Shown here in pieces: positions 5,145-38,788 of a stretch of DNA of 64,000 bases (positions are counted from its first letter, which is position 1; the number at the start of each line of letters is the position of its first letter). The DNA is from Eukaryota sp. TZLM1-RC. Its lineage: Eukaryota; Protista; Metamonada: BaSk clade. The stretch covers positions 496,001-560,000 of the forward strand of contig JAUPSS010000001.1 of assembly GCA_040285825.1 (NCBI GenBank). Direction: 5' to 3'. The notes beneath the pieces were generated by a model. It did no database searches and was not told where the DNA came from. It saw only the letters and a list, made by a program, of their open reading frames with translations. The position numbers were made by a program, and so were the translations under genes.

Positions 5145-7088
5145 CCCCTCTGTATCACGTGTATTCACTCGGTCTTGTGCACTTAACTCGCTGCTGACCC
5201 CTGCAGCGGTGCAACAAATTCGGACTGACCTTCCTGTGGTCACCGAGATTTGTCATGAAGCGTCTTTATTACTTCAATCTTTTCTTCTAAATTTTCCGTT
5301 GGCATCAAGAGGTTTAGTGGAACAGGATGTATGGTATCTGTTTATGACCGTCATCACCACTGGTTCTTTTCCAAAGCCTTCCACATCTAAAGGCCAACGC
5401 CAATTACTCCATATCTTTTACAATGGATTTCTTCCTGAATGCCCACAAGACAGGTCTCTTGTTTCTGTGTGGGAAAATTCTTTAGTGCCTTACAGAAATT
5501 CATTCCATCTTTTCCTCAATGATTGGCTGCAGTCCCAGAACTGTAATTTTATCAATAGAAAAGGGCTTTCTTCTTATCTTGCCTGTCGTGCTCGTCAATT
5601 GGCCTCCAACGTTAAGACATGTTTACCCAAAATTTGTCAATCCTGGACAAAAACTTTATTCGTGCTCATTGTAGAGCCCTGAATAAAACAAATGTCTTTG
5701 CAAATAATATTCTTTCACTTTTGCCAGATGAACTACTAGCCCAACCCGAGGAAGTAGTAGTTGATTCTGTTCTTGAATACCTCATCAATTTCAATTTGAA
5801 TAATTCAAGAGAAAGATTTTTTTTATTGAATGCATGTAGGTTTATCTTGAATCTCTTTCAAAGATTTCCTACCACTGCCTCCCTACTGTCCTCACATGAT
5901 AAAATCACTTTTTCATCAAAGGAAATTAGTGAGCTTTTTCTCTTCAATCTTAAAATTTCACAATACTTACTCACTTTCTTTTCTCATATGCATTGCTGGA
6001 AGATATTTAGAATAATACCTTTAGCTTCTCATAAAGGTTCTAAATTTATTGAGGTACCTTCACAAATTTTCCACTCTGTGAAAAAAATTTCCAATTATTG
6101 AAGGATCATCTTCCAAAACAAAGTTTATCAAAAATACATGTCTGAAACGAGTATTCAAACAATGTCCTTACCAAAAATTCAATATCAACAGAAAAGTTTG
6201 AAAAATAGATTTAACAAAATTTTATTGAAAACTAATGGTAATGAACTGCTTTTGACCTTTGAAGGTAAAAATAATGACTCAGAAAACACAGATGAGCTGG
6301 ATGAACCACCGAAAAAGAAAAGAAGATCAAAAAATGAAATGAAAAGTGACCCTGATGCCAACAAAACCAGAGAAACACAGTTGAAGGGTACTAAAAAAAT
6401 GCCCCGTCGAAGACGTAGACATCCAGTCGAAATTTTACCTGAAAGGCCCCTTATCGGCGTTGATCTTGGCCAATCAAGATTATGTGGTTACTTCTTAAAT
6501 GATAATCAATGTGGAGTTATTCCTTGTCCAACTGGCAGAAGATACGTGACAAAACCTTCACCCAGTAAACACTCTCCCAACCAATATTCCGTTCAAAATT
6601 TCAACCAATATTTGAACCATTGGAATTTGGTCAGGAGGAAAGTGTATTTGGAAAGTAATCGCCAGAAATGGAAAATAATTAAATTTGATAACCGCAGACG
6701 AAAAGAGAGACGGTTCAGAGAGAGTCTCAACAAATTTCAAAGGCTGGCTGGACATCCTGAAAAACTCTATCTTGCTGTGGGTTCTGCTAATTTCCCTTCT
6801 CATTGCCGAAAAGTCAATCGATATGGATCAGCAAGAGCTTTCAGAAAATGGTTGTGTTATCAAAAGGACGTGAAGCACTTGTCAACCAGTGAATTTAATA
6901 CAAGCAAAATGTCAAGTTGTTGCATGGCCGAGAATATTCAAGCAGGATCATGGCAGATGCGTATTTGTACTGAGTGTCAAATAGTATATGACAGAGATAT
7001 TTCCGCTGCAAAAAATATTCAAATTAAGAAGAAAGCGGAATTGTGGCCGGAAAGATACATTTGCCCAGATGCTCTGCTGAGGAGATGA
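5134..7088 (+). mobile_element. Fanzor (eukaryotic TnpB-like RNA-guided RuvC nuclease), split into three ORFs
   Basis: N-terminal CALNSLL...ICHEASLLLQSF, FRIIPL, LKTNG, RuvC-I LIGVDLG, LAVGSANF, RuvC-II STSEFNTSKMSSCC, Zn finger CTEC, RuvC-III YDRDISAAKNI. NLS-like PPKKKRR. Confidence 0.85.
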
Positions 7089-7362
7089 ATAGGGAACGTG
7101 AGCATACAGAAACAAAAACTTTTGAGACCGATCTACAAATACCTTAGTAGCATTTGGTAGATCCACTTAGATACATCAAGTCGCGAGGCTTTGTTCTGTG
7201 AATGCAGTAGGTGTATTTAAGTGAGGTAGCCCATTGATGAAGATCATGATTGTCTTTGTCAAATGATGCTACATGTCTCTTACAGCCTGTGAGTAGACAT
7301 TGAGAAAGTTGAAAATAGGAGTGAATTTCACAGGGGAATGCATGATAAGTGAAATTCACAGT
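7089..7362 (+). ncRNA. Candidate Fanzor omegaRNA scaffold / element right end
   Basis: Nested stems directly after the stop: GCATACAGAAACAAA (7102) pairs with TTTGTTCTGTGAATGC (~7205), and GATCTACAAAT with ATTTGGTAGATC. Further hairpins ATGTCT...AGACAT (7273-7300) and GTGAATTTCAC/GTGAAATTCAC (7321-7359). Confidence 0.5.
7329..7362 (+). repeat. 34-bp direct repeat, copy 1 (copy 2 at 8486..8519)
   Basis: CACAGGGGAATGCATGATAAGTGAAATTCACAGT is identical at both positions. Confidence 0.95.
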
Positions 7363-7745
7363 AAGAATATTTGAGAATAGATGATTTTCCAGTGATGATC
7401 ATTGATCAATCATCTTTTGTATGAATTAAGGCCATAAGACATTGAACTCTTCTGTACTTCCGCAAATACTGATGTACTAGAGTTTGGCCTCGACAAGAGT
7501 GACTTTTGGTAGACTCGGGTAGTTTAGTTGGCATTGAATTTTAATTAATTGGAACTCAAACTGTGAAGAACTTCCATCACAAATTTTGGAGACATTTGTT
7601 TTATAGAAAATGGTATATGACAAACTAAAATTCAAATGAGACAAATGAGGCAAATAAAATAAGTGAATTATTGCACAAATTTATACCAAATTGCAATGTT
7701 CATGACTAATGAATTCCTAAATTAACAAACACAGACAGACATCTG

Positions 7746-8485: not shown

Positions 8486-8519
8486 CACAGGGGAATGCAT
8501 GATAAGTGAAATTCACAGT
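8486..8519 (+). repeat. 34-bp direct repeat, copy 2
   Basis: Identical to 7329..7362. Confidence 0.95.
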
Positions 8520-9273
8520 TACAATACTGACCCATTTTCTTTGTTCATTGTTTATAACCTTATTAGTATTCTTTATTACTTTTGTTAATAACTTGTATTC
8601 AAACATTGCAATAGCCTAAAATATATACATATTATACAATAAATACAGTATGATAGTTTATGAAATGCTGCATTGATATGCTGATGGTTATATTCTCAGC
8701 TATAACATTGTCCTATTGGCTTAAGAAGAGGATTGAATTCACGATAGTTATTATAGAATTATACTGTTAATTGAGCAAGCATATACCAATATTTAGCGGG
8801 TACGCCACCTGTTAAGTTCATTGAGTGCTCATACATCCGATTTAAATGAATTTGATCAATTATTTGTTCAGAAAACGCCAAATTTGTTAAATTGAATTTC
8901 AAGGTCTATATCGTGACAATAACGTCCCATTAAACTGATATATCAACACGCATATGAACAACACCTAAATTTAACTATGTTTTACGAAGCAAGCAATTAT
9001 AAAATCCCAACAAGAGACAAAATTTCTTCAGCACTTATTGCAGAAACGATTACACATTTTAAAATCAATCACTGTGACCAACAGTGAAGTCAGATAAGGA
9101 AATTTTGTATGGACATGAGTGGTCACACAAAGTCTTAAAATTGAGGGAAATATTGGGCATTACACATGCTCCAGCACAGTATTGAAAAGTTTGTACAATT
9201 TAAATGCTCTCCTATATTATATTACCAAACATCTTTTAAAACAAAAATTTATTTCAAGACCTACAAAAATATT

Positions 9274-12200
9274 CTACAATTTACTAAGATATGAATCATA
9301 ACTAGCATCTGTGGCGGCCTTGATGCTGTCCAACAACTTTCCATCAGTGAGACTCAGCTTGGTGACACTTGAGCCTGACAAAGACCCCTTGAAATACTGA
9401 ATCATAGGATCAAAGTAACTATGATTCCCAACAGGACACATCAAATAATTGATACTCAATTCTTTAGACTTTGCTAGAATTGCATCAAATCTAGACTCCC
9501 AGGTACGACCACTGGGATCTTTGGGGTGATTATCACCTGTGCCACAGTTGAACCTGGAGCCATGATTGGGAGCATCACCAACAATAAATATCATACGGTG
9601 ACCCTTCGGCCAAGAGAGTTCCAGAGCTTTATCCAATCCAGTACAAATGTCTTCAGGGGCATCACCACCTCCAGCAGCTCTTACACTGCGAATTTTGCTA
9701 CTCAGAGTGGATAGATTACCAAAAGGCAGGACCTCAAAAGGTGCAGAATCACCAATGTCGCGATCTAGAGTTAACCAAACAAAGAAAACATACAAGCTAC
9801 AAATCCAAGATTAACCTTAACGGTAGAGGTGTAACCATACGAAGAAGCAGTAGAAGATAAGGATTTTTCAAGCTCTCCGCCCATTCGTATAATGTTTTCA
9901 GCAGTTTCTGCGATATAAGAACCCATACTTGCAGTAGCATCAAACACAAATACCGCGGACATGTCAGTGTTGATGTCTTGTTTCTTGATGAAATCCAAGG
10001 ATAGTCCAGTGGATGGTTTAACTGAAGGCTTTGGCTTCTTATCATAGCTTGAATAGGAGGGCGTTGACTTGGAATTAGATCTAGACTTTGAGTTGGAATC
10101 TTTAGGTTCCTCACCACCAATACCAAAAACAGAACCAATCTTACCTAAAATACCAGAAGCTGTTCCTTTAGAACCAGATAGTCTGGGCATGGGGATACCA
10201 GCAGGATCACTGTTAACTTCCCAATGGCCGTACTTCTTGTAACACCGGGGATCATTCTTGTTCTTGCACTTAGAACCGTTCATACATTTATAAGGAATGA
10301 GAGGAAGACTACCATGAGAAAATTGGAAGCGATGTTTTGGATCAACAATGTCTCTACAACGTTCCCCATGGCGACATTCTTCACGTTCCAGATGGTGGAA
10401 AAGGGCACAGTGGCTTGCATCATCCTTGTCCCTACACCCACTACCAAAGCGGCAAATGTGTACAAAATTAGAAAGGTGGGTTTGTCCAGCGGCAGTTTTG
10501 GCTTTGGAACCATCGTAGTAGTACTCACAGGTCCAAGGATTGCGACACAATGGTTTAGATTCAGTGGATTCAGAGGTGGTTGGTGTGGTTGGTGTGGTTG
10601 GTGTGGCATTCCTAGTTGAAGTAGGGGCCTTCTCCATGGTTTGATCAGCAATAGATTTCGCTGAATGTAAGTGACGCTGAGCAGCATTGACAAAAACTTC
10701 CTTAAATGAAGCATACCCGTCTCCATTCAGCTTAAAACCTATGCAAACATCCTTTGATTTGCACTTCAATTGAGCATGAACAAATTCTAATGGAGGGAAT
10801 TTGAAAGCAGTTTCAGCACCAATTCTTTCCAGCTTAATTTCCCCATTATCTCTGTTGATCACAAGCCCAAACTTTATATAAAGTTCCTTCATTCGAGAAG
10901 GGAAATACAACCGTTGATTAGCAATTTGTTGACCATCGTGGAGATTTGTTGAATTGAAAACAATGACGTTACCTTCATTAAATGAAAAACACATTCCTGA
11001 AGCCTTAGCAATGATTTGCAGATGAAAATTCGTGGAAGCATTAACTTTAAAGGCAACACGAATGGGGTAACCATTGTTGAAGACCTCACGCAACTGCAAC
11101 GAGTTGCATAAAGGTTGAGGAGTTAACACAAAGCTATAACCTTTGCTACACTGGTTAGCATCTTCACTGTTGGTGGACAAATCAGCAGCATGGTCTAAAT
11201 ACTCCTTAGAGCTTACGTCGCCATCAGTTAGAACTAAAAAACCAGGTGTTACGGCATTCAAATCATTGAGTTGTTTTTGGGCTTCAGCAGAAAGCTCTTT
11301 GAAAGTTGACTTTGGCATTAGAATATGTCGAACATAAGAAAATGGAATCATTGGAGCTAAATGGCATTCAAAAGTGTGGTGACTATCAATAGAGAAAATA
11401 GTTTCAAGGCACATTTGGCATGTTACGGTGGACACGCCAACTTTCCTCTTTTCAGCAACCATTCTGGCTAAATCCCAAGCCAACACTTCAGATGCCTTGA
11501 TACAGCCCATATTTTGAATTAAGGAATAGTAAAATCTGATACGTTCGTTAGAATGGGTCTTGGACGGTAACTTGATGTAACTTCTGCCGGCATCATCCAA
11601 ATTTCCTTGGCTATAGTATAATGTTGCAGCAGTAAGGTGAACAAAAGAGGCAGGGTGCTTTGAAAGTTCATCGGAAAAGAATACAGAGATTGGTCCATAT
11701 CTGTGGAAGGTATTCGGACCCAAGTTGGTAAAGACAGTGTGGTCTGTTTTGAGAGCCCTGTCCTTATCGTATCCAATACCAACCTCCTCAGAATTAGCCT
11801 GTTGGTTCAATGTTATGGCAGCTTGAGCAATACCAGTAGCGAGCTGATTCAACTCCTTAAGAGCCTCATTGGGAAGATTCAATAACTTTTTCGATTCTTG
11901 TTGGGCAGCAACATCTACTTCCTGCCCACTAAGCCTTGAGAATTCATTTTTAGCAGCTGTAGCAAGATAATCTGCAACAGTTGAACGATTAGAGAACTTG
12001 TGCAGTCGGTGGTGATTGCGTGCAATGGATTCTATAGTATCGGAGTTGCCTAGCTTATTTTTCATAAAATTAAGAGAGTAAAAGTTGCCATGGGCTAATG
12101 AAGATAAGAATGGTTCTACCTTGATTCTATGGGTAGGCTTAAAACCTAAAATAAACTGGGCGATGCTGGCAATATTTTCGGGAACAGACTTTGTTCCAGA

Positions 12201-15200
12201 GGGTACAACAAACTTTCCAAGTTTAATGGCATTTTCGTAAAAATTAATCTCATGATCAGCAGATAATGAAGGTGGTCTCAATGAACCAACGATTTGGAAA
12301 ATCTTGCTAGAGGGATGTGAGAACATTTGCAAATGATTTGGATCACTCTGCTCAGTGCAACCAACTCTGTGACGGCATTCGTGGCGAGGATGGGGTGCAT
12401 TGTTGTGTTGATAGAGAGCTAGATGATTGTTATCAGTAGAGGAACAATTCTTATCTGGGCAGTTCAGACGGTTCAAATGAATGAAATGCTTAATATGGTC
12501 TGGGGACTTGTCAGTGCAACGAGTACCGTGACGACAAACAAAACGTTCATAGACCATTGGACCTGAACCACCGACAAAAGGATCTTCTGCAAGACGTACA
12601 TGGTTGAAATTATTGACGTGTTCTGAGGTAAGATCAACGCAATTCTTAAAAGGACATTGAACTCGATCGTGGTTATAAAGACATTTTTTGTTTTTTTCAC
12701 GACAATTGGTACCATTGGGACAGGAAGGTCGATGATAAAACGAAGCACGGTGTTTCTCACTTAGATTCTGACAATGAGGTCCGTCCCTACACGAAGGTGC
12801 ATGTTCAAAGGCAGCATCATGTCCAGGATCCTGATGATGGTGTAAACAATTCGTGAAATATTTACAAGGCTTGGTGTGAAAGAACAGCGCTGTATGGGTT
12901 TTTGACGAACGTAGAGAACAGTCAGTTCCATTGGGACAGATTGGGAGATGAATGAATCTTTGAGCATGATCTTTGTCTTTCAAATTTGTGCATTTGTTGG
13001 GTAACTGGGGGCAAGGAAGTTTCAAAGATTTGAGGTTGGTGGCTACAAGATCAGTTTTCAAAAGCGACGCACATTGATTGAGCTGGTCAGAAAATCCACT
13101 AAATATAATTGAATCAAAAAACTTGTGAAAAATGGAAAGTACAAATGATAAAACAGTCATTGCACCGGGAATAGGGTTTCTGAAAGCTCCACAACCAAGA
13201 GGGCAAATCACTAAATGAGTAATTCCGTGTTTAATGGCAGCTAAAAAGACACAAGTCCATCTCTTGTATAGTAATTGTAAATCATCAAAATGAGCATAGT
13301 CTTCACCAAAGTTTTCAACTTCTGAGATTTCTGGCTCCTGAGGAGCAGCAGTACTTATAATGGTAACTCTTTGTGGTTTTTCAAGCAATTGACATCCAGT
13401 AGCTTCAGTTGTTTTGAAAATTTCCACATTTTCGGTAACTACAACATCAATTTTAGCTGTTTTCCATGGATATGCTACCCTTTGGCCAGAAACTACCTGT
13501 CCACCATACTGTTCAGGATCCAAAGCAGCACCTAGAGTTGTTCTTCTGAAAAGTGATTCTTCCTGAGCACTGGCACCCGTGAGATAACCACCACCAGGAT
13601 GTTCCTCATTGGCCATATTGAGGACACCAACAACTCTGTTCCTGTTGGGTTTGATAGAAATAGCGCATTCAAGACAGTCTTTGGGCATGGGCTGGACTGA
13701 GGAGGTCTTTTTCTGTTCCAGAGGCGAAAAACTGTGGTTAATCACATCATCAAAGGAGTAGACATGGTTAATCAAATTAGGAACGTGAAGTTTAACCTCG
13801 GTTTTGTTTTTTGTGTTGTTATCAAAGATGGCATATTTGTTGCCTCCCACAGCACTAATTGTATGAGCTTGGACAATACATAGCGCCAGTCTATACGCAC
13901 CATTAGAACGTCGTCTTATGTTGTTGACATCAAACTTAGAAAGCACTGTCTCCATGAAACTTCCATACTTGTTGATCAATGTATTATAGCTTTTAGCAAG
14001 TGTAAGATGAGGTGATTCTTCTTTCAACAGCATTGGTAACGGAAAGCCAAAATGAAGACGATTAACAAAAGCAACAATTGATTCAACTTCCGAGTCTTCC
14101 CTTAACTTAAAAGAGGACTTCTCATTGATTGGACATCTATTGTGTTCAGTGAGTAAAATTAAACGACGGCCGAAAGTAACCAACCAGCATCTCTTTTCCG
14201 TAAGATCAAATGTTGTAATAAGAGCAGCTTTTGCAAGTTCCAAATCAGTTTGTGGTACGATAGCGAGCTCCCAAGCATGCTTAATCTTAAGATCAGATGC
14301 AGCACCTCGATGGATGACCACGATAAAGTCATGGATTTGCTTAGATGCGGAATTAAGTGATTGAGAGAGATTCGTTTCGGATGACTTGGAAAACACATCA
14401 AATTTGGCAATTGATATTCCCTTTTTGTTCTCATTTACCAATTCAATGACACAATTAGGAAGTTTGGATTGGAGTGACTTTTGTATAGTTGAGGCGTTCT
14501 TCCCACTAGAATAAATGGCTGTCAACTCAATCTTTTCATGATAAACGTTGATATGCATCTCGCTTGCACTAAGCCAAATGTTATTATCTCCAAGAATCAG
14601 ATCTAGAGCACGGACTGGTTCTACTTTTCTACAATTAAATGTCACCAGAAAGAATTGTGGGGAGATTTCTTGAACAGAAAAAGTACCTCCATCCTGAAGA
14701 ATCATTTTGGCAACTTCTTCTACACGATGCAGAGGAAAGGGCTTTTCAGGTTGGAAATACAAAGTGCAGGAAAAACTTTCATACTGCGCAACTTGTCTTT
14801 GAGGTAGTAGATTGCGGAAAACATGGACTTTGATGTTGGTAAACTCTTCAATGCAAGGTCTGATCTGAGGTTCTGCCCAAATACGACGCAGCGATTCATC
14901 TTGCATATCCTTCTCTTGGAGGAAAAGATAAGCTTGTGTTTCTTGATAGGAGGTCATATCTCTATCTATGGGGAAAAGATTGTTTTGTGAAGGATCTGGC
15001 TCCGGTTCTGAAGATGGTTCAGGATGGACAGAAGGGAAAGGGCATGGCATAGGATCATCATAGTGACTACTTTCGGTTTCGGAACTACTACTAGTATCGT
15101 GTACAACATTGTGTGGATTGACGTTAATTAATGAGGGGAACAAACTAGGGCCTGGTTCAAACGCTACATCTTCGGGAGGCTCAAACGGAGAGCTTTCAGC

Positions 15201-15380
15201 AGGGTCGGATAAATCCAATACAACAGTCTTGTGACTTGGATTGAAAAAATCGGGGAATGGTGCCTTGACCATCAATATCCTATTCTTGTTCAATTGGTGA
15301 GGAGGAGAATTATAAGCAAAAATTTGGTGAAGTTTACACATTTCAATGATTGTTACATTTGCACTTCTCCACACAAACAT
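9274..15380 (-). CDS. Multidomain protein: bacterial-type PARG (DUF2263-like) + 13 PBZ-like zinc fingers + putative ADP-ribosyltransferase-like domain + vWA; one 29-nt intron (9765..9793)
   Basis: VLNMANEEHPGGGYLTGASAQEESLFRRT and PLGCGAFRNP (PARG). Repeated C-x5-C-x6/7-H-x5-H fingers. MIDAS-type FDATASM. Splicing GTATGT...TTAACTCTAG restores VAYRDIGD and joins the 9274..9795 ORF (GGGDAPED, IVGDAPNHG). The true start may be MVKAPFP at 15272. Confidence 0.85.
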
Positions 15381-16227
15381 AGCATAATTGTGTTGGTAAT
15401 TATATCATCCATGTACAATTTTGCAACTAATTCAAAGAAGAAAAGAGACTGTATAAATAGTCAATCACTGTTTCCCTAGGGATAAGAAAGGCTCTTGTTT
15501 CTATTTTGAATTGAATCGTGTTATTGATGATATTTGTCTCATCGGTATGATACTCTTCATTAAAAATCAACTACACTTAACAAAATAGCCGTGTGCTTCC
15601 AAAGTATTTGTTTTCAGTTTTTTTACTTTGTTGTTTATACATAAACCTTGTACAAAAAACAGAAATAAGTCGTTGCTATATTTGAGGTAAAAAATAAACA
15701 AATGAATAGAAATGAATAAAATCACCACATGTTTGGATTATGGCGACCATGGATTGCGAGGAAATTAGATCATAATTTTTCTGAATCAATGTGAAATAAC
15801 AAACGATGATTAGATCATTGAAAATGATTTGAGATAGAGTTGGACAAAACTCGACTGAGAAGGTCCAGTTGCAGTTAGTTAGATGGAATATGGAATATTT
15901 TCAGATAACGTGTAATCAATGTGCTTATTCGAGATCAATGCACTTATTTAAAATATGCTTAAAATCTGATTTCCTTTAATGAATGTTCATTCTTTTAAAT
16001 CATGGATGAAAAATTCCAAGAATACTAAACTGTAGTAAAAGGCTATAACTTAAGACAAATATGGAGGCCTATCGCCACCACTATCCACTCAAAAATACTC
16101 TACAATACATAATGCTTTGATGGATGAAAATTTATGTTTCTGGAAAATTAATCAAAGACAGGATTCTTTTGGAACCATCCATAACCTTTGGCCACGTATA
16201 CTTTCTTCATTGTTTTAAACATCTTTT

Positions 16228-19200
16228 ATGGTAAAGTCTTTTCCAGGATACCATTCTTGTCATGAAGTTGCTGCTGGAGCTTTTGGAGTAGTATACAAAG
16301 CTGTTTCTTGCAAGGATCAAAAACTTTATGCTATTAAACAGTTTTTCCTTCCTGCTGATAACCCTGAAGCATTGATGCGTGAGATTGCACCCATGAAACT
16401 CGACCATCCAAATATCTGTCGTGTTATTCGCCATTTTCGTCATTTTGATGGTCAGCATACCAGCGATTGCTTGGTGATGCCGTATTATGAGACGAATCTC
16501 ACCAATTTGATATATCATTCACATATTCGTGAAGATAACTCTCCAGGAGAACCTTTAGAAAATGACCTTGCATGGAAAATATTTTGGCAATTAGTAGAAG
16601 GTATACATTTTTTACATCAAAAAGAAATATGCCATAGGGATCTAAAGCCGGAGAATGTACTGCTGGATGAGCACCTCAATGTAGTGATTTGTGATTTTGG
16701 TTTGGCTAAACCTTTTGACAACATCAACGGCAACCCTTTTAATACATTAGCCACTCCAGCCTACTATCCCCCAGAACTAATTGCATCCGGTCAATATGGC
16801 CCAGCTGCTGACTACTTTGCATTAGGGGTGATTTTCTACGAGATGTTGGTAGGAAAAATGCCTTATGATCCCCTTCTCCCAGATCGTACACTTGAGCCAG
16901 GTGTGCTATCCAAGGTAAATGACCCAAAAGCAAAACAAATCATCGAGAACCTCTTGAATGTAAGACATGAACCAAGATCTTATTCTTTTGATAATCTAGT
17001 CAGGTGGTTACGTCATCGCTTCGATTCTTCATTCCCAACATCATCAGTTTATGAAGTCAACAATGATGATAACGGTCATGTAGATTTGATCGGTTCGGCA
17101 CGTGGTAGTCTTGCCACAGAGGAACCTAGTGCTCCTCCAATTCAAGAAACAACAAATTCTTATACAAACGACAGTCATGGAAGAGGCAACTCTTTTGTTA
17201 CTAAGCCGGAAGGATTGTACCAAATTAGTAAGCTCGACAGTATTCCCAAACACACTCTTCAAGTATCACAACCTTCTTCAGTCACCAAAGAACAAACAAT
17301 CTCAATACACTTTGTTGGTGAGGATGACGTTGAAAGAGTAACTTCTGTTCTTCCATCAATGTTTAGTTCAGTGCAACAAACTGGCAAGTCTGATTATCGT
17401 AATTTCTCTTGTTTGGAATTTCTCGTTTATTACACTTCAAATGAACATTCTGTCACTCTTAAACAACTCGTTAGGAATGGACTGGCCAGTAGTGTTGATT
17501 GTGGCCTGCTTAATTACCCTGTTATTAAAGGTAAAGCTGATCCGTTTCCTGAACACGTTTTTGAGGTTGTTCTTCATCCCTATCTTCGTTATTCGTCAAT
17601 TATTCAAGCAATTAATGTTTCAACAGTTGGTAAAAAGCACAGATTTTATGTTTTAAATGAGCGGAGGTTGCTGATCATGACTTCTAACTATGGTGATCTA
17701 TCCCCAGGGTCTAGCTTTTCCATAAGATTTAACGGACAGAAATGCACTTTTTGCATAGTTTATATGAAAGAGTATAACCCTCTGTCGCCTATTCCAGTAC
17801 TGTTTAATGACGAAACAGCCTCTGTTGATTTGGTGAGGGATACTTTCAGTTGTGTTGATGGGTCATACAACCCTTCACTCAATTTGGAATTATTATCATT
17901 ATATAGTGATCGCAGATACTTTTCCCTAAAACATTGTTTATTCATTAACTGTGTCTCCCAAGCCCACACCTTCTATTGTATTGAAAAAGGAAGGTACTTT
18001 ACTGGTGATGGAGCTAGCAACAGTTTGGAAGTTCAATCAATCACAAATTCTACTTACAGCTTTCCTCAATTAGTGCAATCTGTCTCTGGAACTCAGTTAC
18101 CACAATTGTATTTCAACGACAACACTTTTTGCCTCCAAGAACAGGATTGTTTGGAATGCATTACCCAATGGATGCCCTTGAACGACAAAAAAGTTGGGGT
18201 TTTGTGTATGGGAAGCCCGGACTCTCCTGGAGGTGAGTATTCAAGTGGATCCAATTCCCAAGAATCTTCTCTATTCCGCAGGACTACCTTGATGGCTGGT
18301 TTCGCAGGAGAACAGTTTGGTTCTAGAATCCATTCTTCCAGTCAACGTGTCCCTTATCCATGGGATTCTAACAACATTGATGTTGTGGTTACTGAAGGGG
18401 TAGAAGTCATCAAGAGTACAGAGGTTGATGGCTTAAGACCATTACCTTCCCCTTTTGAAATTGTTGTTTTAACCTCTTCTGCCCCTCAACATCCAGCTAT
18501 TAGAAAACACTTTAAATTTGGTCAAGATTTTGCTAAATTGGATGACTTAGAATTACTCTACAAGAGATGGACCTCTGTCTTTTTAGCTGCCATTAAGCAC
18601 GGAATTACTCATTTGGTGATTTGCCCCCTTGGTTGTGGATTTCTCAAAAATCCTATTCAAGGTAGCATGGAAGCATTGAAAAGTTTATTAATGGTTTTCT
18701 CGCCCTATTTCAGAAGTATTTGTTTCTCAGCTTTTGAAAACTTTTCACAGTTTTCTAATTTATTAAAACCAGAGTTGCCCTTACCTTCAAGACCTCCACA
18801 AATGTTCCACGAACTATTCATCCTCCCTTTTTTCACTCCAGGGTTAGGGTTATCTAGAGTTCTTCCTTGTTGTAAAAAGGGTTCAAAATGCGGAAAGTTC
18901 AAGAATATTCTTTCTCATCAAGCGTTTTTCTCTCATCAAGCTAGTACTGATTTGGTTCTCAATTGCCCTAATCCAATCAAGTCTATTGAACTTCCCACTC
19001 GGCGTCTTCTTAGGTCCCGCTACCAGATCTCGTTTCACTCAAATCCTTTCTGTTCCTTGGAAATTGCATTTTCCTTTGAAAGGGGTGAAAATTATTCCGG
19101 TTTTTGTGTCAAATTTGAATCTGGGCATGTCTCGGTATTCAATTCACCAACTTCCTCCATTGAAGATGGTCCTGTAATCAGCCAACAACTATGTGATTCC

Positions 19201-19404
19201 CTCTGTACATCTTCACTTGCACGGTTTGTTATGTTATTTTACCAAATTGATGGTGACTATTTTGTGGAAGTCCAAGTGTCCGACAATGGTTGTCTTCTTG
19301 CACCACTTTCATTGTCTCCACAAGAAAACGAAATGACCTTCCTACATGCCAGAATGACTGAACATAATGCCACTTTATTGGGATTTAAATATGGGTGCTT
19401 ATAG
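16228..19404 (+). CDS. Ser/Thr protein kinase fused to a PARG-like macrodomain with altered catalytic motif and one PBZ-like finger
   Basis: YAIK, HRDLKPEN, CDFG, PPE, DYFALG. Then GVLCMGSPDSPGGEYSSGSNSQESSLFRRT, PLGCG and CKKGSKCGKFKNILSHQAFFSH. Confidence 0.9.
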   Translation: MVKSFPGYHSCHEVAAGAFGVVYKAVSCKDQKLYAIKQFFLPADNPEALMREIAPMKLDHPNICRVIRHFRHFDGQHTSDCLVMPYYETNLTNLIYHSHIREDNSPGEPLENDLAWKIFWQLVEGIHFLHQKEICHRDLKPENVLLDEHLNVVICDFGLAKPFDNINGNPFNTLATPAYYPPELIASGQYGPAADYFALGVIFYEMLVGKMPYDPLLPDRTLEPGVLSKVNDPKAKQIIENLLNVRHEPRSYSFDNLVRWLRHRFDSSFPTSSVYEVNNDDNGHVDLIGSARGSLATEEPSAPPIQETTNSYTNDSHGRGNSFVTKPEGLYQISKLDSIPKHTLQVSQPSSVTKEQTISIHFVGEDDVERVTSVLPSMFSSVQQTGKSDYRNFSCLEFLVYYTSNEHSVTLKQLVRNGLASSVDCGLLNYPVIKGKADPFPEHVFEVVLHPYLRYSSIIQAINVSTVGKKHRFYVLNERRLLIMTSNYGDLSPGSSFSIRFNGQKCTFCIVYMKEYNPLSPIPVLFNDETASVDLVRDTFSCVDGSYNPSLNLELLSLYSDRRYFSLKHCLFINCVSQAHTFYCIEKGRYFTGDGASNSLEVQSITNSTYSFPQLVQSVSGTQLPQLYFNDNTFCLQEQDCLECITQWMPLNDKKVGVLCMGSPDSPGGEYSSGSNSQESSLFRRTTLMAGFAGEQFGSRIHSSSQRVPYPWDSNNIDVVVTEGVEVIKSTEVDGLRPLPSPFEIVVLTSSAPQHPAIRKHFKFGQDFAKLDDLELLYKRWTSVFLAAIKHGITHLVICPLGCGFLKNPIQGSMEALKSLLMVFSPYFRSICFSAFENFSQFSNLLKPELPLPSRPPQMFHELFILPFFTPGLGLSRVLPCCKKGSKCGKFKNILSHQAFFSHQASTDLVLNCPNPIKSIELPTRRLLRSRYQISFHSNPFCSLEIAFSFERGENYSGFCVKFESGHVSVFNSPTSSIEDGPVISQQLCDSLCTSSLARFVMLFYQIDGDYFVEVQVSDNGCLLAPLSLSPQENEMTFLHARMTEHNATLLGFKYGCL

Positions 19405-24252: not shown

Positions 24253-25860
24253 TCACAAGTTTGAATTTTTGCAGTAAAGAACAAGACGATTTGTAGCCTG
24301 TTGATTGGAATAGGTTGATAGATTTTGTAATTGTTTCTTTCTTCTTTTAATACCTTGGCGTTTTTTGCTTCTGATTTCTGGAAGTTGTCTTTTTTTATAA
24401 AACACCTTTTGTGAAATTTGTTCTGGGGTAATAGTTACAGCAGGTTTTGGAGAAACACAGTGCATTAAGTCATACTGGTTAGGGTCAATGGCAAATATTC
24501 TTTTATCTTTTAACTTCATTTTTTCGACGTTTTCAGCAGACATAGAATGTATGTATCGTTCTTGGTACGTTAACGTCTTGGAGGTAAAATTCTTGAAAAC
24601 ATTCCCATCAACCAGGTCTTTACGAATTAAGACCACGGAACAAGCAATCCCGTCTGTTACAATTGAGGAAAAACTGAATTGAAAGCAACTTTTAGTCTCC
24701 CGTTTGTAAGAATTTAAAACCTTATCAGTTAGTATTTCGGTAAAAACTGGTGATCTTATGTCATCTGCTCTCCCTTTGAACTTGCTAAATCTTTCGTTGA
24801 GCCAATGAGTATCGAATCTTATATGCTGTGGAGTCAATGTAGTTGTCAATGGAAAAGGATTACTGACTGACAAAGGTTTGCCATCCTAGGAACAAAATGA
24901 TTGAATGGTTCTGTTAATATATAGCATGAGAGAGAAATTTCAATGGCTTGGCAGATTGAGTATAATAAAAAATTTTACCCTCAATAAAAGTGGGAATTAA
25001 ACAAAGTTTCACATAAGCAAAAAACATCAAAGTAAACTCTGATTGGGGAAAGGGAAAAACAATGTGATCCTTGATAGGAAGTTCATCAAAGTTTTCACAG
25101 ATAATGGCTTCCCTGGCTTTGTTGAGTTTAGTCAATAATTCTTCCTTGAAATACTTTTCGTGAATTTGTTCTAGTCTGAGCTTCTTCACAACGATAATGT
25201 TTAACTAGCGAAAAACGTATTCATGAAAGTGTATGCTGAGATTATTGCCATAATTAATGGCAATTTGTTTGGCTGTGTAGTGCGAAACTCGATCCATTGA
25301 ATTATTATCTGGAAATTGAATCCTTCTTTGACCAAGCTCATTATCAAGATTGTGTAGAATTGGATGAAGAAATTCAAGTAATTAAAACTAATTTTCTGTT
25401 TCAAAGTGTAATTCAAAATATCCATATCTTTAATTACTTTTTTGGCTTCAATCTTTGACAGTTCCAAATCAGAAATATTTTTGTTTGACTTTGCAACAAA
25501 CATCCGTCTTAAAACTGATTGATTGATTCGCTAAAATCTGGTAGTTGAATTGAGAAATCATTAAAATCGAAATAGGTAACATAGTCGTATTCATGCATTG
25601 AATACGCAATTTCGATTGTGGAAAACGTTTCTTCAATCTAAAGGGCATCAAAATCATAATCATCCATCAAATCAATTTTTAACTTCCTATACTCAGTATT
25701 TTCATATTGACACAGCAAAAAAATTTCAAGGAGGGATTGTTCCTCTGACAGTGGCTAAGTGGTTTTTGTGAACACACTTATAAATCAAAGTTCGCTTGTC
25801 ATAGTCCTTGATTGTTGTATTTATTTTTCTTTTTACAACCTTTATTGGAGGTTGTTCGAC
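24253..25860 (-). mobile_element. Degenerate Fanzor, 5' part through RuvC-I; 3' half missing
   Basis: IKVVKRKINTTIKD...IYKCVHKNH (N-terminal motif), NPFPLTTTLTPQHIRFDT, FSSIVTDGIACSVVLIRKDL, RYIHSM, RuvC-I RIFAIDPNQYDLMHCV. Many frameshifts. Confidence 0.75.
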
Positions 25861-25879
25861 AATAGATTGAAAATGATGA

Positions 25880-26978
25880 TGAAAAAAGCGCAGTCTCATT
25901 TCATCAAAAATACGGATTACTTGTTGTAGATTTTCAGCCAGAAATTCTGTATTATCATTTCGCCACAATTTAGTAGTTTTGATTTGTTCTAACAGTTGAG
26001 CAAATTCTTTTTTTCTTTCAATGGAAACTGTAGTTAATACCAACCTTTGTTTACAATTTTTTATGAAAAAGTCAAGTTCTACTGTTGAAATGAAATTGTG
26101 AATTTCATGTTGAAACAGTTAAGAAAATACATTTTCAATGCTATTTATTCTTCCTCTAACAATATACAAAGACTGAATTACCTTTCTTAAATCTATAGTC
26201 ATAAAAGGTCCTAATCCAGTTTCGCTAAACCATTCTTTAAACCACAGAGGGCTATGAGAAATATAATCGTTTTAATTGGAAAACTTTTTCAATTTGCAAC
26301 AAATCACAGCGTTGAACAAAACAAGGAAGAAAAATTCGTCTGTGTTGTAGCCAATAAGTAACCCAGGCTTAATCTTAATCAATAAGTCAATAACTGAATT
26401 AATCATATCCTTCTCTGATGAACATAAGTGAATAGAACAGTCCTCTGATTGAGGAATCACTTTTGTGGAGAAGATGTGTGACTCTTCCGAATCTTCATAT
26501 ATAAATGCCAGAGTAATCATAATGAGAGAATTTTCGTGAGGATTTGACAGTAGTTCCTCTCTGTATGTTTCATGTTCTTCTTCAATTTCAGGAATTTCGG
26601 CATCAGGTTCTTGAAACAAAACAGTGGGTTCTTCAAAGGAAAAGTTTAGACTGTTAGGTGACTTTTGCGATTTTGAAATAATATTCACATCAAGACATTG
26701 GGTGTTGGTAATGACTCTTCTCAACGCCAAAAAACAATGTAGCGTATGAGTAGCTTGAGAGACATTTTCAATAGTGCATAATTGTCTTTTTTTCTATTCA
26801 GGAGTGAGTCTAGATCCAGTGTGAGAATGACGTTTGAAGATAGTTTTAGAAGATGTAGAAAGCAGCGAAGTAACACGTTCTCTGTCTTCTTCTGACCTAA
26901 GAAGAGGTACAGAGTATGAAACGGTGGGTGGGTCAATACCCAGGTTCAGCGACACAATGGGCGGAGAGTGTCTAACAT
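25880..26978 (-). pseudogene. Family-B DNA polymerase 3'-5' exonuclease-like domain, decayed, upstream of and apparently fused to the Fanzor
   Basis: IHLCSSEKDMINSVIDLLIKIKPGLLIGYNTDEFF (ExoII, GYNxxxFD-like), followed by GPFMTIDLRKVI. Starts at the ATG (26978) of the shared leader. Confidence 0.65.
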
Positions 26979-27160
26979 GTAATAAGAATTATGAGCTTCT
27001 TTATCAAATTTTACACTTATCACCCCATTTTCGACTTCTGGTTGTATTGATCTGGTAGGTTTTTAACCCTCGACTTGGTTCTGGGAGTTTTTTAACCCTC
27101 GACTTGGTTCTGGGAGTTTTTGACACTTTTCTCACACTTTTCTCATTCCTTTTCTATTGT
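26968..27160 (-). repeat. Conserved 5' leader/left end (copy 2) with a tandem 30-bp unit
   Basis: Homologous to 4984..5144. TTTTAACCCTCGACTTGGTTCTGGGAGTTT occurs twice (27061-27120). Confidence 0.85.
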
Positions 27161-27544
27161 CAGCATTGTTGACATTATGTTCGTTTTAGGATTTCGTCCC
27201 AGAAAATTTTAAATAAAATGTTTATTAATTTTTTGAGTTATTTTCATAAAAAGAATCTTTATCGCGTTTATAATAATAAGGAATGTTTTCAACTATGACT
27301 GTTGAATATCAAGCCCAACAACTGTCTAGGGGTGAAAAGAGGGTTTAAACCCTATTAAAGATAATATTTTACAATTATGTGCTCAATTCTATAACACAAG
27401 ATTCCCTCTTTTAATCACAGCAAACACAATCTTCTATCCTATATCAACACTATTCCAGACCTTCCGGATTCTGTTTCCTCTGGGGATACACGTCATCTCA
27501 ACTTCTTTGTAGATTCACCTCTCCCATTCCTTCTATCTCTGTCA

Positions 27545-29099: not shown

Positions 29100-30770
29100 C
29101 AAATGAAAATGGTAAGAGATCCAAACAATTATCTACAATATACTCTCAATCATTGTGTGAGCATTGACCTAAACTGTTTGGAAAGTTGATACATACTCTA
29201 TTATGGTGGTTGGCAATTGAATTTCTGAAGCGGTAATGTCATTTGAGACACACACTCATGATTGCCATTTGGGATAAGTATCAGAAAAAAAGAACGGAGA
29301 TGAGTATGTTGGTCAAATTACACATCCAAAGTTAGTTAGCCCGAATGTTCGGAATTCTAACAGTGATCACAGCTGTCGAAAAGTAAACAAAAAACCCACC
29401 AACGGCTACAAAAACAATTTAAATTTGAATTGCAATGGTTCATACACGGATGCTATCTGGTCATCCTTTTTAATTTTTGACGCGGAATGTTGACAACCAA
29501 ACTAGAGCAATTATTAATTTTATGGAATTGTACAAACAGATGATTATTCTATTTCATTATTGTTACAAAGAAAAAATTTGTTTGGACAAAAATATTCTTC
29601 CGTTCAGTTTTTTGCTCAAGATTACTACTTGGAACAATTGAAGCATAGTGAATCAGAAGGAATTGATTTGGTTGATAGAACGCCGGCCACAATTGATACT
29701 GGAATGTGAGTTAAAATCAATACCATGGCCGAAAAGTGTCAATTACTTGTCAAAATGATGAATATGTATATCTATATGTCAAATGATGAATAAATTTTTG
29801 TTGGTGAAAATTTCAGACCCCGAAAAAAGCAGAAAGGAGATTCAGAAACAGAAGAATTAAGTCATGTGATCTAAAGATGGAGCTATGGGAAAACCATCCA
29901 ACAAAGAGAACAGCAAAGCGAAAACCCAAAGATTTTTACAACAGATTCTGTTATTGTCAAGGTGAAAGAAATTTTGATTTGAAAACCATGCGTTTCCACA
30001 AGATAGATCAAAATATGTTAGAAAAAACTCAATGTCTAGATGTGATGTATTACAGAGGCTACAACTCAATTTTCTGAAATGGCAACACTGGGCGAAGGCA
30101 GATCAGCTGAACTTACACAAATCAAAACGTATATCGAAGCAAAAGAATTGTTCAATCTAAGAACTCGAGAGTTCTACAAGCAACCTTGGTTTAGAAAAAG
30201 ACGTCAGCAGCTTTTATCAAGCAGAAGAAGATCAGAAGACCAAATGATTGATCAATTCAGAAAAAAATTTGGACTTCCTTCTGATGTTGCTATCGGATTT
30301 GGCGATTGGAGACATGCTGATTTAGGAATCAAAAGTTGGGCACCTACTGTTAAAGAAAGATCTTTGAGCTAGTTGCTCAAAAAGCCAAATATACAGTCTT
30401 GTTTATTGGTGTATGCCGAAGTTGATATTGTTTTGCTTGTGCCAAATTGGGTCAAATCGGGATGAATTCTGAAAAACATGGTGTCAAAAGGCCTAAACCT
30501 GTGAATATAAGACGTTTGAGGAGAAGAAGAAAATATTTGAAACGGTTGTATGAAGGAGTCGAAAGACATTATAGTTCAAAATACGAAGAGGAAAAGTCAA
30601 CAGTAGACGCAAATTCAATTCCTTGGGGACTACGGAAGATGCTCAAGGTGTAAAACTTGATGGGATAGGGATTTTAATGCAGCCATCAATATTCAAGAAA
30701 TCATGAAGGCTAGGTTGCGTAAGGATAATAGACGTATAGTATTGTGTAGAGATAATAGGGACTAACATTT
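29100..30770 (+). mobile_element. Degenerate Fanzor pseudogene
   Basis: HCVSIDL, YTDAIWSS, ATIDTG (RuvC-I-like), FYKQPWFRKRR...RRSEDQMIDQFRKKFG, VAIGFGDW, WGLR, CSRCKT*WDRDFNAAINI (RuvC-III). Boundaries approximate. Confidence 0.8.
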
Positions 30771-32099: not shown

Positions 32100-32532
32100 G
32101 CAAAAATTCTGCTGCTCGTTTAGTGTATTCCGCTGATTCGCCGTTATCTAACGCCGAAAAAAGAAGATAAAAAAATATGAAGAACCTTTGGCACAGTTAG
32201 GTAGAGTGGAACATGTGAAATATCAGTTTGTGCCGTTTACAATTTCTCTTTTTGGCAATATTGGACCTTCAGGGTTGCACTTTTTGGAAAATTTTAAAAA
32301 AGTGTTACTGAATAGGTCTGGTAAAACAATGAACTCCACTTTCTGGTTAAATAGAATTGTTTTTTGCATTTTCAAGTCTATTCCTACAATGATTTCAAAG
32401 GCAGTTTTAGCTATTGGTGTAGAATATGAACGTAATGCTGTGAGTAGGTTCAGTAATAGTGACGCTTGTTTGGAGGATATTGAATTCTAGATGGTTATTT
32501 TGATCTCAATAAATATGAGTTCTGAAAAAAAA
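32100..32532 (+). mobile_element. 3' fragment of an RLE-type non-LTR retrotransposon (subfamily A)
   Basis: KKYEEPL..YQFVPFTISLFGNIG...FWLNRIVF, then AATAAA and an A-tail. Near-identical to 53173..53550. Confidence 0.75.
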
Positions 32533-33655
32533 GCTTTATTAATTAACAAAAACTAAATTTAAATTATTGCTACGCCATCACACGTGATTTGATGTCCTCA
32601 TCTAACACCACCCCTTCTCTACTTCACTTCTTTAGTGATGGCAAATTCCTTGTAAAAGGATTGAGTACAATAAATACGGCTCTTCATTTGGGGAATCACT
32701 GCCATAAACATTCAGCACGTCTTCAAGGCATGAGTCAAAACAGTTGTTGACTATTTTTCACTAACAACACAAATAACAGTGTTCACCTGTTCTAGTACTA
32801 TTATACTGTGAACATAGGTAAATTTTTCAGCATCGTAAGTTTGGACATAACCATTGCGAAGAGGGCATTTGATAGCAATATGACCTGGATTATGATATTT
32901 ATAGCAAATTTTAGCAGAATAAATCTGTATCTCTGGCAGTTGAGCGAGCATCTGTAATACAGATAGATTCTGACTAAATTTAGATCTATCATGATCAACA
33001 GTTTCGTCGATAGCAACGTGCACGATGGTTTTGAAATCAGGCAACAATTGGACATGGATACGGGAAACAAGAGATTTAGCAAGTCATTTAGAAAAAATAT
33101 CAACAGCAAATGGTTTTATAAACACAGCTTTAGAAATGGCAGGACAATCATGTTGGTTCTTCAGCTTCAGAAAGCTTTACATGTAACTGTTCTTTTTTTG
33201 GCACTAGAAATTTTCATGTTCATTTTCAACTGAGAGAATGTCTCATTGAAAGCTTAATAGGAGCAAAAATTGTTGAAAGATTTCAGATAACTGAGCAACA
33301 CACTATCAGAGGTCTTTACCTTTGGTTCATACAACTTCAAGGATTTCAAATTAAACGGAGAGATTTAATGAAACCACTTTAGCGCTATCAGTGACAGACT
33401 GATGTAACTGAAATTTGCTCAAAAACAAACATACATTTTCCCTAGACAGCGACGTTAGGTGAGGACCGTCGACAGAACGCATTTCATGGTTTCACCAATG
33501 GCGGGAACAAAAATAGTAACGGTCAGGGACCCGAAACAGGGTCAAGGAGATTAACGTTATTGTTGGATTCCACTGCAGTGATCAAAGGAAAATCTTTATT
33601 ATTTAACAAACACTAAATTAAAACTATTGCCACGTCATCACACGTGATTGTATGT
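32530..33655. repeat. ~65-bp direct repeat (32530..32595 and 33590..33655): shared 3' end of two decayed minus-strand genes ending NHV*
   Basis: CTTTATTAWTTAACAAAMACTAAATTWAAAYTATTGCYACGYCATCACACGTGATT is seen at both sites. Confidence 0.8.
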
Positions 33656-36729: not shown

Positions 36730-37555
36730 TGTGAGATAGTGCTTCTTCTGCCTTAGTAACAACAATTCCTCAAGTGTATGGCACTCTCCTAACTGATTCT
36801 GCTTGGACTTCGAATATGAGATTTCATTCCTTTATCTGGCCTGATAATTTACCTCATAATTTAATTTGTAAATATTCTCCAGAAATTACAATTACTTATT
36901 TGTTAAATTGTAAACATTTTATTACTTTTAGAAGCAAGGTTCATGATGCATTAAGAGACCGGTTATATTGTATGTGTAAGTCTCATAGAATTGAATCGTT
37001 TCTGGAACCTCTGTTGTCAAATCTGTATGATACTGAAGATGATTTTCATAACAATAATAGAGGTGATGTAATAATACCTGGATTAGATGGAAGCTTCACT
37101 CTATTGGATGTAATGTCTGTTGATCGTTGTAATGTCTCAAATGAAAGGCTTGCGAATTCTGAAATTCATTATCCTCGTTCAAATGCTGAAAACTTCAAAA
37201 TCAAGAAATACAATGAACCTTTGTCCCAATTGTCCAGCCAACAGCATGCAAAATTCAATTTGTATCCATTTCTATTTTCTCTATTTGGTTCACTTGCTTC
37301 CACGGCTATACGTTTTTCGGCAGATTTTGAAATAATTGTAAAGAGAAAAACTAACAGAAATTTCAACAGATTGTTTTGCCAAAATAGAATTGTGTTTTCT
37401 ATTTTTAAGGGGATGTTGAAGATGGTTTCTGATGGTTTGCTTTCTCTTGGATCCCACTATGAGAGATTTGCATTTAGTTGTTTTGTTTTGGGATAGATGA
37501 ATTTTTTAGATGTTGATTTATAAGTTTTCTAATAAATAAATATTATTAAAAAAAT
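36730..37555 (+). mobile_element. 3' fragment of an RLE-type non-LTR retrotransposon (subfamily B; zinc knuckle + restriction-like endonuclease)
   Basis: LLNCKHF...RSKVHDA, RGDVII...LLDV, KIKKY, YPFLFSLFG, RIVF. AATAAA and A-tail at ~37530-37554. Confidence 0.8.
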
Positions 37556-38049: not shown

Positions 38050-38475
38050 TGTTGTGTTACAAATGGCATTTTGGATCAAAGAAGGAAACTTTATCCTGTA
38101 AAAGCTCTTGAATATAAAGCGCATGAAGACAATAGAAAATTAGACAGAAATAGCGAAGAACCTAACACTGATAGAAATAGACCACTAGTTTTATTGCTTT
38201 TTAAACGGAAGACTTTCAGTAGAAGCAGTAAATTTTTGAATGATTTTTCAAAAATTGGTTCAAGAAAAAACAATGAAGAGATTTGATGTCCTTTTGTGGC
38301 GCTCTCGATTCAATTTGCCATTATCAATAGCTTACCTCGGTTTTTAATCAAATGAGAGAAGCTTTAGCGAGACAGCAAGCAGATTAAGATTTTGTAGAGG
38401 AAATCTTGGTTCATTAAATTTGGTCCCAATAATTATGAGTTTATTGTGTTAAGAATGCTGGTTTAATGAAAAAAG
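38050..38475 (+). mobile_element. 3' fragment of a non-LTR retrotransposon (subfamily C)
   Basis: Similar to 58730..59040 (TTTTRTGGCGCTCTCG, GAGAAGCTTTAGCGAGACAGCAAGCAGAT). RLE-like C-terminal motif; ends in an A-run. Confidence 0.6.
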
Positions 38476-38484
38476 TTCTTTGTT

Positions 38485-38700
38485 GAACTATATTTTTATT
38501 GAACTAAAATACTTTCTAATATTCAATATCCTCCAAACAAGCATTATTATTACTGAACCTACTCATAGCATTTCGTTCATATTCTTCACCAATAGCTAAA
38601 AGAGCTTTAGAAATCTTTGTTGGAATAGACTTGAAAATGCAAAAAACAATTCTATTTAACCAGAAAGAGGAATTCAATTTTTTACTAGATCTATTTGGCA
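38485..38700 (-). mobile_element. Short 3' fragment of RLE non-LTR subfamily A
   Basis: FWLNRIVFCIFKSIPT...ACLEDIEY, matching 32188..32490. Confidence 0.75.
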
Positions 38701-38788
38701 ATAGTTTCTTTATATTTCCAAAACAGTGTTATATACAGGTTAAATGAAAAAAAAGAGGTATCATTCAGACTTTCGCATTTTGTCAACA

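Follow-up and report, generated by a model that had tools for sequence, protein, structure and literature searches.

A dead Fanzor1 element of a metamonad belongs to a family with a PolB-type 3'-5' exonuclease domain ahead of the Fanzor

Fanzor1 nucleases such as SpuFz1 (8GKH, 9CEU-9CEZ), GtFz1 (9CER) and PpFz1 are known from multi-copy loci without a transposase (PMC3627910, PMC10432273, PMC11423790), and they are defined by the motif D-X(125,275)-[TS][TS]-xx-C4 zinc finger-X(5,50)-RD (PMC3627910). Here we describe an element in a 64,000-nt stretch of DNA (hereafter the window) from the metamonad Eukaryota sp. TZLM1-RC (contig JAUPSS010000001.1, positions 496,001 to 560,000), which is a dead, 3'-truncated member of a multi-copy Fanzor1 element family with an exonuclease before the Fanzor. 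The family is likewise multi-copy, with no transposase identified, and shares with the known proteins the order and motifs TDG, RuvC-I D, GDW, E..TS, C4 zinc finger and RD, but it adds a family-B DNA polymerase (PolB) exonuclease of about 300 aa directly before the first Fanzor strand and, further upstream, a 2A sequence and, in the isolate GEM-RC1, one or more Ulp1 domains, for a predicted length of about 1475 aa. The window is eukaryotic, with a base composition of about 36% GC and long open reading frames (ORFs) in the standard code.

The closest counterpart of the added module is the DEDDy proofreading domain of PolB, with which copies from the isolate TZLM3-RCL share Exo I, Exo II and Exo III, the likeness extending to PD.E.D.I after Exo I and to SE.E.L...F...I....P..I.GYN...FD. 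The element exonuclease differs in having no polymerase domain, in an acidic insertion of about 45 aa after Exo I and in a family-specific W..RW...GPF..D...Y.F.GGR.L.NV block, and it is degenerate in the clade of the window copy. A distant cut is likewise combined with a PolB exonuclease in the homing of the T4 td intron (I-TevI with the 3'-5' exonuclease of gp43, DexA and RNase H), in which I-TevI cuts 23/25 nt from the insertion site and the gp43 exonuclease affects homing efficiency and co-conversion (PMC2988022). There, however, the phage's replicative polymerase acts in trans and the cutter is protein-guided, whereas the element carries a detached domain on an RNA-guided cutter. Transposons also have 3'-5' accessory exonucleases, of the DEDDh type in P and piggyBac and DnaQ-like in long terminal repeat (LTR) polyproteins (PMC3627910, PMC6338049), but these are neither PolB-derived nor fused to TnpB or Fanzor. 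Engineered TREX2-Cas9 and T5 exonuclease-SpuFz1 proteins likewise unite a guided cutter and an exonuclease in one chain; the present fusion is natural, PolB-derived and 3'-5', whereas the T5 version reduced SpuFz1 editing. We found no natural exonuclease-Fanzor or PolB-exonuclease-TnpB fusion in the literature covered, which, for every source cited here, consists of openly accessible text, with supplements and subscription papers outside its scope. An insertion in RuvC is described in PMC11423790, whose accessible text shows no fusion of the exonuclease type; the word exonuclease is absent from the main texts of PMC10530073, PMC10711439, PMC10432273, PMC3627910, PMC13565253 and PMC10691335, and Fanzor is unmentioned in the accessible text of PMC12338488, PMC12846837 and PMC11316075.

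Using the read-through frame of the window element in a HMMER search against 1.84 billion representatives, we obtained 11 proteins at E <= 0.001, and relatives were found only as predicted proteins (P numbers below) of three isolates listed at NCBI as Eukaryota sp., namely TZLM1-RC, GEM-RC1 and TZLM3-RCL. Both TZLM isolates presumably fall in the same group as Skoliomonas sp. GEMRC. The genome of the latter is treated among those of free-living metamonads (PMC11316075). The relatives are gene predictions of the AUGUSTUS type (methods of PMC11316075), analysed here as protein sequences. The nearest named relative of the window copy is P0002 from TZLM1-RC (76%). Two TZLM3-RCL proteins, P0009 (KAL0225525.1, 1473 aa) and P0017 (KAL0227451.1, 1479 aa), hold both halves in one chain each, matching PF03104 (E = 5e-13) and PF07282 (E = 2e-7 and 1e-6); they are 89-96% identical, region by region, and their cluster has four members, with P0018 and P0019 partial. 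In P0009, a leader of about 110 aa with a 2A/StopGo sequence is followed by a low-complexity linker, the exonuclease at residues 275-570 and Fanzor1 from about residue 576, which carries the RuvC D-E-D residues D1037, E1316 and D1414 and two CxxC pairs. With the motif set D1037, E1316, TS1319-20, CxxC 1323/1404 and RD1413 in P0009 and P0017, the full-length relatives, judged as predicted sequences, fall under the Fanzor1 definition with a slightly long spacing: the distance from D to TS is 281, six above the published 125-275, because an insertion of about 85 aa follows RuvC-I. The closest solved structures are those of Fanzor1 proteins and not of Fanzor2 or TnpB, namely SpuFz1 for P0009 (E = 7e-7) and P0018 (E = 2e-8) and GtFz1 for a piece of the window copy (E = 1.8e-4). 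Besides SpuFz1, P0009 has yeast Pol delta (E = 4e-4) as its best solved relative.

The window is collinear with P0009 in three tblastn blocks, residues 334-579 at 26535-25831, 721-876 at 25336-24917 and 891-1084 at 24879-24343, and in the GEM-RC1 proteins P0004, P0016, P0007, P0023 and P0024 the exonuclease reads on into the same KVVK/KVIK strand. Because of this collinearity and these junctions, the fusion appears inherited and old and not an artefact of the window copy. An earlier note on this DNA had proposed an ancestral exonuclease-Fanzor fusion, and the intact single chains of P0009 and P0017, together with the read-through junctions of GEM-RC1, bear it out; separate or never-adjacent genes, or an upstream region unlike PolB exonucleases, had been named there as counting against it, and the opposite was observed on both points. 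Taken together, the predicted sequences make it almost certain that the exonuclease-Fanzor fusion is a real heritable family. Scans of viral contigs and of one metagenome gave no relative of the fusion, tblastn against phages and plasmids gave distant polymerases only (33 records at 21% identity and 1 record, respectively), and ESM Atlas gave for the fused stretch only leads below 0.9, to viral Fanzor-like clusters.

The quoted pieces of the window copy all lie on the minus strand, from 26978 down to 24253, and every motif that the earlier note had quoted is present there at its place. The element and its surroundings are laid out as follows:

26968-27153, minus strand: left-end leader, common to an exonuclease-less Fanzor locus at 4990-5146 (blastn, alignment, shuffles)
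26976-26978, minus strand: start ATG of the element gene, out of the exonuclease frame here, in frame in P0011
26746-26975, minus strand: N-terminal linker with a TGSRL motif, a TAG stop at 26794-26796 and no 2A motif
25880-26745, minus strand: PolB-type 3'-5' exonuclease domain, catalytically degenerate (PF03104; tblastn to P0009 and P0016)
26716-26739, 26329-26349 and 25891-25944, minus strand: Exo I site, Exo II site without its Asp, and Exo III-equivalent helix (motif columns)
25729-26118, minus strand: junction frame, stop-free and intron-free, from the exonuclease C-terminal helix to the first Fanzor1 strand, with IKVVK from 25845
24917-25845, minus strand: Fanzor1 N-terminal/REC region with several frame changes and stops (P0009 721-876 at 25336-24917)
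24253-24885, minus strand: Fanzor1 WED/RuvC-I part and start of the bridge helix, with FPLT, TDG at 24657 and the RuvC-I Asp at 24484-24486
27299-27326, no strand assigned: 27-nt motif joined directly to 26012 in one paralogous contig, a candidate outer element end or deletion derivative

ORF 26272-26793 (minus strand), which contains CSSEKDMINSVIDLLIKIKPGLLIGYNTDEFF, matches the Pfam family PF03104 (DNA_pol_B_exo1) at E = 1.2e-8 (35.2 bits, cut-off 23), the sole match above cut-off among the 15 ORFs scanned, and this establishes the exonuclease-like region reported earlier. By tblastn, the window exonuclease matches residues 334-579 of P0009 (E = 6e-11) and 127-371 of P0016 (E = 8e-22). The domain is interrupted by TAA stops at 26272-26274 and 26119-26121, and the stretch 26119-26271, with GPFMTIDLRKVI, continues in a frame identical to that of ORF 26272-26793. 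With stops read as X, a single frame of 416 codons runs from 26976 to 25729 with three stops, its last 130 codons being free of them and leading from the last helix of the exonuclease to the basic strand IKVVK (25845). The junction ORF carries FLAENLQQVIRIFDEMRL directly into IKVVKRKINTT...IYKCVHKNH; the uninterrupted passage that had been claimed for an ORF at 25726..26043 is thus present, whereas the start given for it is not, the frame being open from stop to stop over 25726-26118 and 26043 being an internal TTG.

On the Fanzor side, N-terminal pieces of P0016 and P0018 match 25848-25515, spanning the frame change near 25737; P0009 and P0018 run on past this change, and a paralogous contig is one base shorter there. 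ORF 24253-24885 holds TDGIACS and AIDPN, rightly read before as Fanzor motifs, and matches the Guillardia theta Fanzor1 (9CER) at E = 1.8e-4. Against the Fanzor1 motif, the window copy has the RuvC-I Asp only, without a RuvC-II/III or zinc finger signal, and it is truncated or decayed past about 24340-24253. A RuvC-II/III remnant was not detectable downstream, the best score being -3.4 bits, equalled in 47 of 100 shuffles, and the stops and frame changes likewise agree with the earlier description of a decayed copy lacking RuvC-II/III; RuvC-II remnants picked out by eye below 24250 were rejected on the same shuffles.

At the left end, the leader of about 125 bp with the ATG at 26978 is 85% identical over 127 bp to the second Fanzor locus at 5022-5146 (blastn), with a local alignment score of 148 against a best of 30 in 300 shuffles, and it contains a 29-bp local duplication at 27051-27108. 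Contigs of run X1 diverge from the window at 26968 and enter sequence like that of the exonuclease-less locus. Of the shared leader ATG described before, the sharing holds, but in this copy the ATG and the exonuclease stand in different frames, with a frameshift within about 7 codons; the alignment to P0011 runs in frame -3 from 26978 and in frame -2 from 26961. The TGSRL motif of the linker recurs in P0002 and in the Ulp1-bearing GEM-RC1 copies.

The right end and the omegaRNA are missing from the window copy, an Rfam scan of the window element gave no match, no right end common to the window's four Fanzor loci was seen, and neither a transposase nor a target-site duplication was identified for the element. 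Equalled in 131 of 300 shuffles, an inverted repeat of 25 nt (24173-24197/27099-27123) was not accepted as a terminal inverted repeat. The joint at 27299 comes from one contig (depth 3.3, side 27, with a loose end) and has a single exact site in the window; the motif at 27299-27326 is short and hairpin-like and is followed by CTAG on the plus strand, for which a Helitron-like end is a guess.

At least five in-frame stops and roughly five shifts of frame break up the window copy. A reassigned code is rejected as an explanation, since host ORFs of 1000-1900 codons are free of TAA and TAG. The TAG at 26794 also sits in a contig of run X1 with zero differences (100% identical); as X1 may come from the source of the window itself, this argues only against an assembly error. 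Several paralogous contigs of run X1, at about 86-92% identity, cover 24354-25186 and 25602-26033, and a diverged one crosses the junction over 25619-25994 with 51 differences in 375 bp; the stretch 26077-26452 has no paralogous contig in X1, to which we attach no weight. On this sequence record, the element family looks old and dead in the run X1 sample.

As to the ancestry of the exonuclease, PF03104 was matched above cut-off in 10 of the 12 proteins scanned, a profile of the element exonucleases ranked Pol delta and archaeal PolB first (E about 1e-10) among 81 matches, and the top ESM Atlas match for the exonuclease, at 0.95, was PF03104. FDVET, YNCDKFD and YCxND are present in all three long TZLM3-RCL copies that cover them (YCVND in P0009); the Exo I/II/III residues are all kept in P0009, P0017 and P0019, and P0005 has Exo I and Exo II. 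In a 14-row tree, made from 13 element domains and phage gp43 and omitting near-identical members of a cluster, the window copy groups with P0002 and seven rows from GEM-RC1 in a nine-row clade (99/99). The gp43 outgroup branch is very long, and the tree, built without host Pol delta or PolB of nucleocytoplasmic large DNA viruses (NCLDV), cannot name a donor.

Within the window clade, all eight rows that cover Exo II have another residue in place of its Asp, three of them with an Asp one place earlier, and Exo III is not recognisable. Exo I depends on the register, being lost in all rows when ungapped and present as D-x-E in two of nine when gapped. The loss of the Exo II Asp across these rows indicates that the domain had become a pseudo-exonuclease ahead of the decay of this copy. 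The clade nevertheless retains the structural motifs SE..ML, P.L...Y, W..RW, GPF..LD and Y.F.GGR.L.NV at 20-35% identity and over long branches. For the TZLM3-RCL copies, the conserved residues make it likely that both activities are live.

Upstream of the exonuclease, a 2A core motif occurs in 6 of the 27 collected proteins (P0009, P0010, P0012, P0017, P0022 and P0023), at residues 104-111 in P0009 (DVEANPGP), and the cores are preceded by DLTADG or NLxLDG. The 2A core (D/G/C/N)(V/I)ExNPGP and its upstream classes, including one matched by DLTADG, are defined in PMC12846837. None of the window's six reading frames contains the motif. In GEM-RC1 copies, an Ulp1/C48 protease domain with H-D-Q-C motifs lies between the 2A and the exonuclease, so that the layout 2A-Ulp1-exonuclease-Fanzor would correspond to a virus-like polyprotein. 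P0010, P0012, P0021, P0022 and P0023 have 2A, then Ulp1/C48, ahead of a dead exonuclease and the start of the Fanzor, and P0012 has two protease-like units.

The explanation that we favour, and to which as a whole we give an even chance, is that the fused exonuclease trims a 3' tail after the RNA-guided cut and the element is then copied back. The Fanzor-omegaRNA complex would cut the empty site 16-21 nt from the target-adjacent motif (TAM) and insertion point, as does SpuFz1, which cuts after nt 16-17 of the non-target and nt 20-21 of the target strand, counted from the TAM (PMC10432273). The displaced non-target strand on the TAM side would then end in a single-stranded 3' tail of about 16-17 nt unmatched by the donor, and since the insertion point lies at a distance from the cut, this non-homologous tail would have to go before synthesis and annealing can finish. 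It would be removed by the exonuclease, which is joined to the N-terminal WED strand and would sit on the TAM side. In yeast, 3' non-homologous tails are excised by Pol delta proofreading (PMC9477423), td homing with its likewise offset cut offers a parallel in the T4 gp43 exonuclease (PMC2988022), and in restorative homing the chromatid that bears the element serves as template for repair of the empty site (PMC13565253). The 2A would free the exonuclease-Fanzor from a short leader peptide, and in the clade of the window copy and GEM-RC1 the pseudo-exonuclease would at most bind the 3' end. That tail trimming for homing is the role under selection falls just short of an even bet, and a two-enzyme cut-and-trim homing machine, in which a Pol delta-type exonuclease was recruited into a 2A polyprotein of virus-like layout that also carries a SUMO-type protease, is a more tentative proposal. 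An end-resection module, as suggested previously, does not fit, since classical resection runs 5'-3', opposite to the polarity of a 3'-5' enzyme, and the catalytic residues are lost in the window lineage.

Several observations weigh against tail trimming. Exonuclease activity, Fanzor cutting and guide use are predictions for every copy, and restorative homing has been demonstrated for bacterial TnpB, not for Fanzor (PMC13565253). Fusing the T5 5' exonuclease to SpuFz1 lowered editing (PMC13434818). Retention of the domain in the dead clade suggests that catalysis is unneeded for the spread of the element there. The exonuclease-less Fanzor with the same leader has a contig depth of 37.7 in run X1 versus 2.4 for unique pieces and so appears far more abundant there, a rough guide that suggests a high-copy family for the second Fanzor locus. 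The changes between the window copy and its paralogues look neutral: 10 of 39 are synonymous (39 of 70 tabulated differences being covered by this count), with 20-27% expected without selection. The AlphaFold model of exonuclease plus Fanzor has a pLDDT of 41.6 and no Foldseek match, and that of the exonuclease alone is weak (pLDDT 51.5), its top Foldseek matches being Pol delta and Pol II at E >= 0.054.

The same intact residue sets in the full-length copies would also suit an exonuclease that chews 3' ends to block religation and make deletions, directed at viruses, competing elements or re-cutting. Since 5' overhangs of the SpuFz1 type have recessed 3' ends, a 3'-5' exonuclease would widen them to gaps, and engineered TREX2 fusions raise editing (PMC13370227). 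We consider such destruction unlikely, because the copies are multiple and mostly decaying, like selfish elements and unlike fixed host genes, and because a flank-derived guide would target the empty allele of the host itself, and deletions there would abolish the site for homing. It is also rather improbable that catalysis is incidental and that the domain binds a frayed or displaced 3' strand or a replication factor, boosting the Fanzor or handing the end to repair. Structural motifs are kept across the 99/99 clade without the Exo II Asp, and the DNA-binding add-on HMG-D improves SpuFz1 (PMC13434818), but P0005 and P0009/P0017/P0019, two branches of TZLM3-RCL, keep Exo I and Exo II over long distances, which suggests selection on catalysis there.

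A polymerase fragment captured in frame, along with Ulp1 and 2A, and tolerated without any role would account for N-terminal cargo that differs by lineage (2A only, 2A and Ulp1, 2A and two Ulp1-like units, or none), for the majority of copies being broken and for one paralogous contig apparently without the exonuclease core. Such a passenger is nonetheless quite improbable: a clean single domain ends exactly at the Fanzor start, in frame, in three isolates and on deep branches, and identity between copies reaches 92-95% in the exonuclease, the same as in RuvC (92-95%), against 89-91% in the N-terminal part of the Fanzor. Trimming of the 3' end of a read-through transcript, by which the exonuclease would set the guide length of the omegaRNA, is very improbable. 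DEDD folds include RNases, but the best matches here all belong to the proofreading domains of DNA polymerases, and those of PolB have DNA as their substrate, which makes the guide-trimming module of the earlier note unlikely as well. The need itself is there, as the guide is the RNA 3' end and needs trimming (PMC11423790, PMC10432273). Finally, a neighbouring exonuclease fragment and a Fanzor might owe their joining to nothing but gene prediction or decay, and the relatives are indeed AUGUSTUS-type predictions; this is exceedingly improbable, since the window DNA itself runs through the junction without a gap or intron, and independent predictions from two other isolates have it at the same position.

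The fusion makes the question of what Fanzors do in their native genomes approachable: should the exonuclease take off precisely the stretch that separates the insertion site from the cut, Fanzor would be a homing nuclease. Active and dead exonucleases in sister lineages, together with an exonuclease-less Fanzor on the same leader, form a natural comparison set. The main interest lies in the full-length TZLM3-RCL proteins and not in the window copy; they are natural counterparts of the engineered exonuclease-editor fusions that steer repair, and a cut-and-trim fusion, if true, would offer a ready-made scaffold with which the repair of RNA-guided cuts could be biased.

Upon examining the rest of the 64-kb window, we counted four Fanzor loci in all, the other three being:

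4990-7370, plus strand: second Fanzor locus, without exonuclease, with the same leader, ATG at 5134 and three frames over 5116-7088
29437-30762, plus strand: third, decayed Fanzor1, C-terminal half (P0009 951-1444, E = 1e-27)
48755-49754, minus strand: fourth, decayed Fanzor1 fragment with GDW and DEYRTS (P0009 1240-1448, E = 4e-18)

The second locus has D/E/D-type motifs and matches PF07282 at E = 3e-7. Its 3' region (7080-7385), a candidate omegaRNA locus, terminates in an 11-bp hairpin and has a better fold than 99 of its 100 shuffled versions (z = -2.4), and a 41-bp copy (95%) of its putative right end (7329-7369) lies 1.1 kb downstream at 8486-8526, possibly a ghost end. The third locus is diverged from the exonuclease element and has a 52-bp duplication (30658-30709/30855-30906); it was rejected as the element's missing half on account of overlapping coverage and opposite strand. 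Repeated fragments lie at 32152-32546, 36735-37496, 38204-38728, 53175-53564 and 63322-64000, and their translations presumably resemble the endonuclease region at the C-terminus of non-LTR retrotransposon proteins. Two proteins of about 1050 aa, at 16219-19404 and 53789-56938 (plus strand), have a 1.68-kb block in common at 94%; both are presumably kinase-like, the common block having what we take to be a macrodomain-like part that also occurs in a 1877-codon ORF at 9771-15404.

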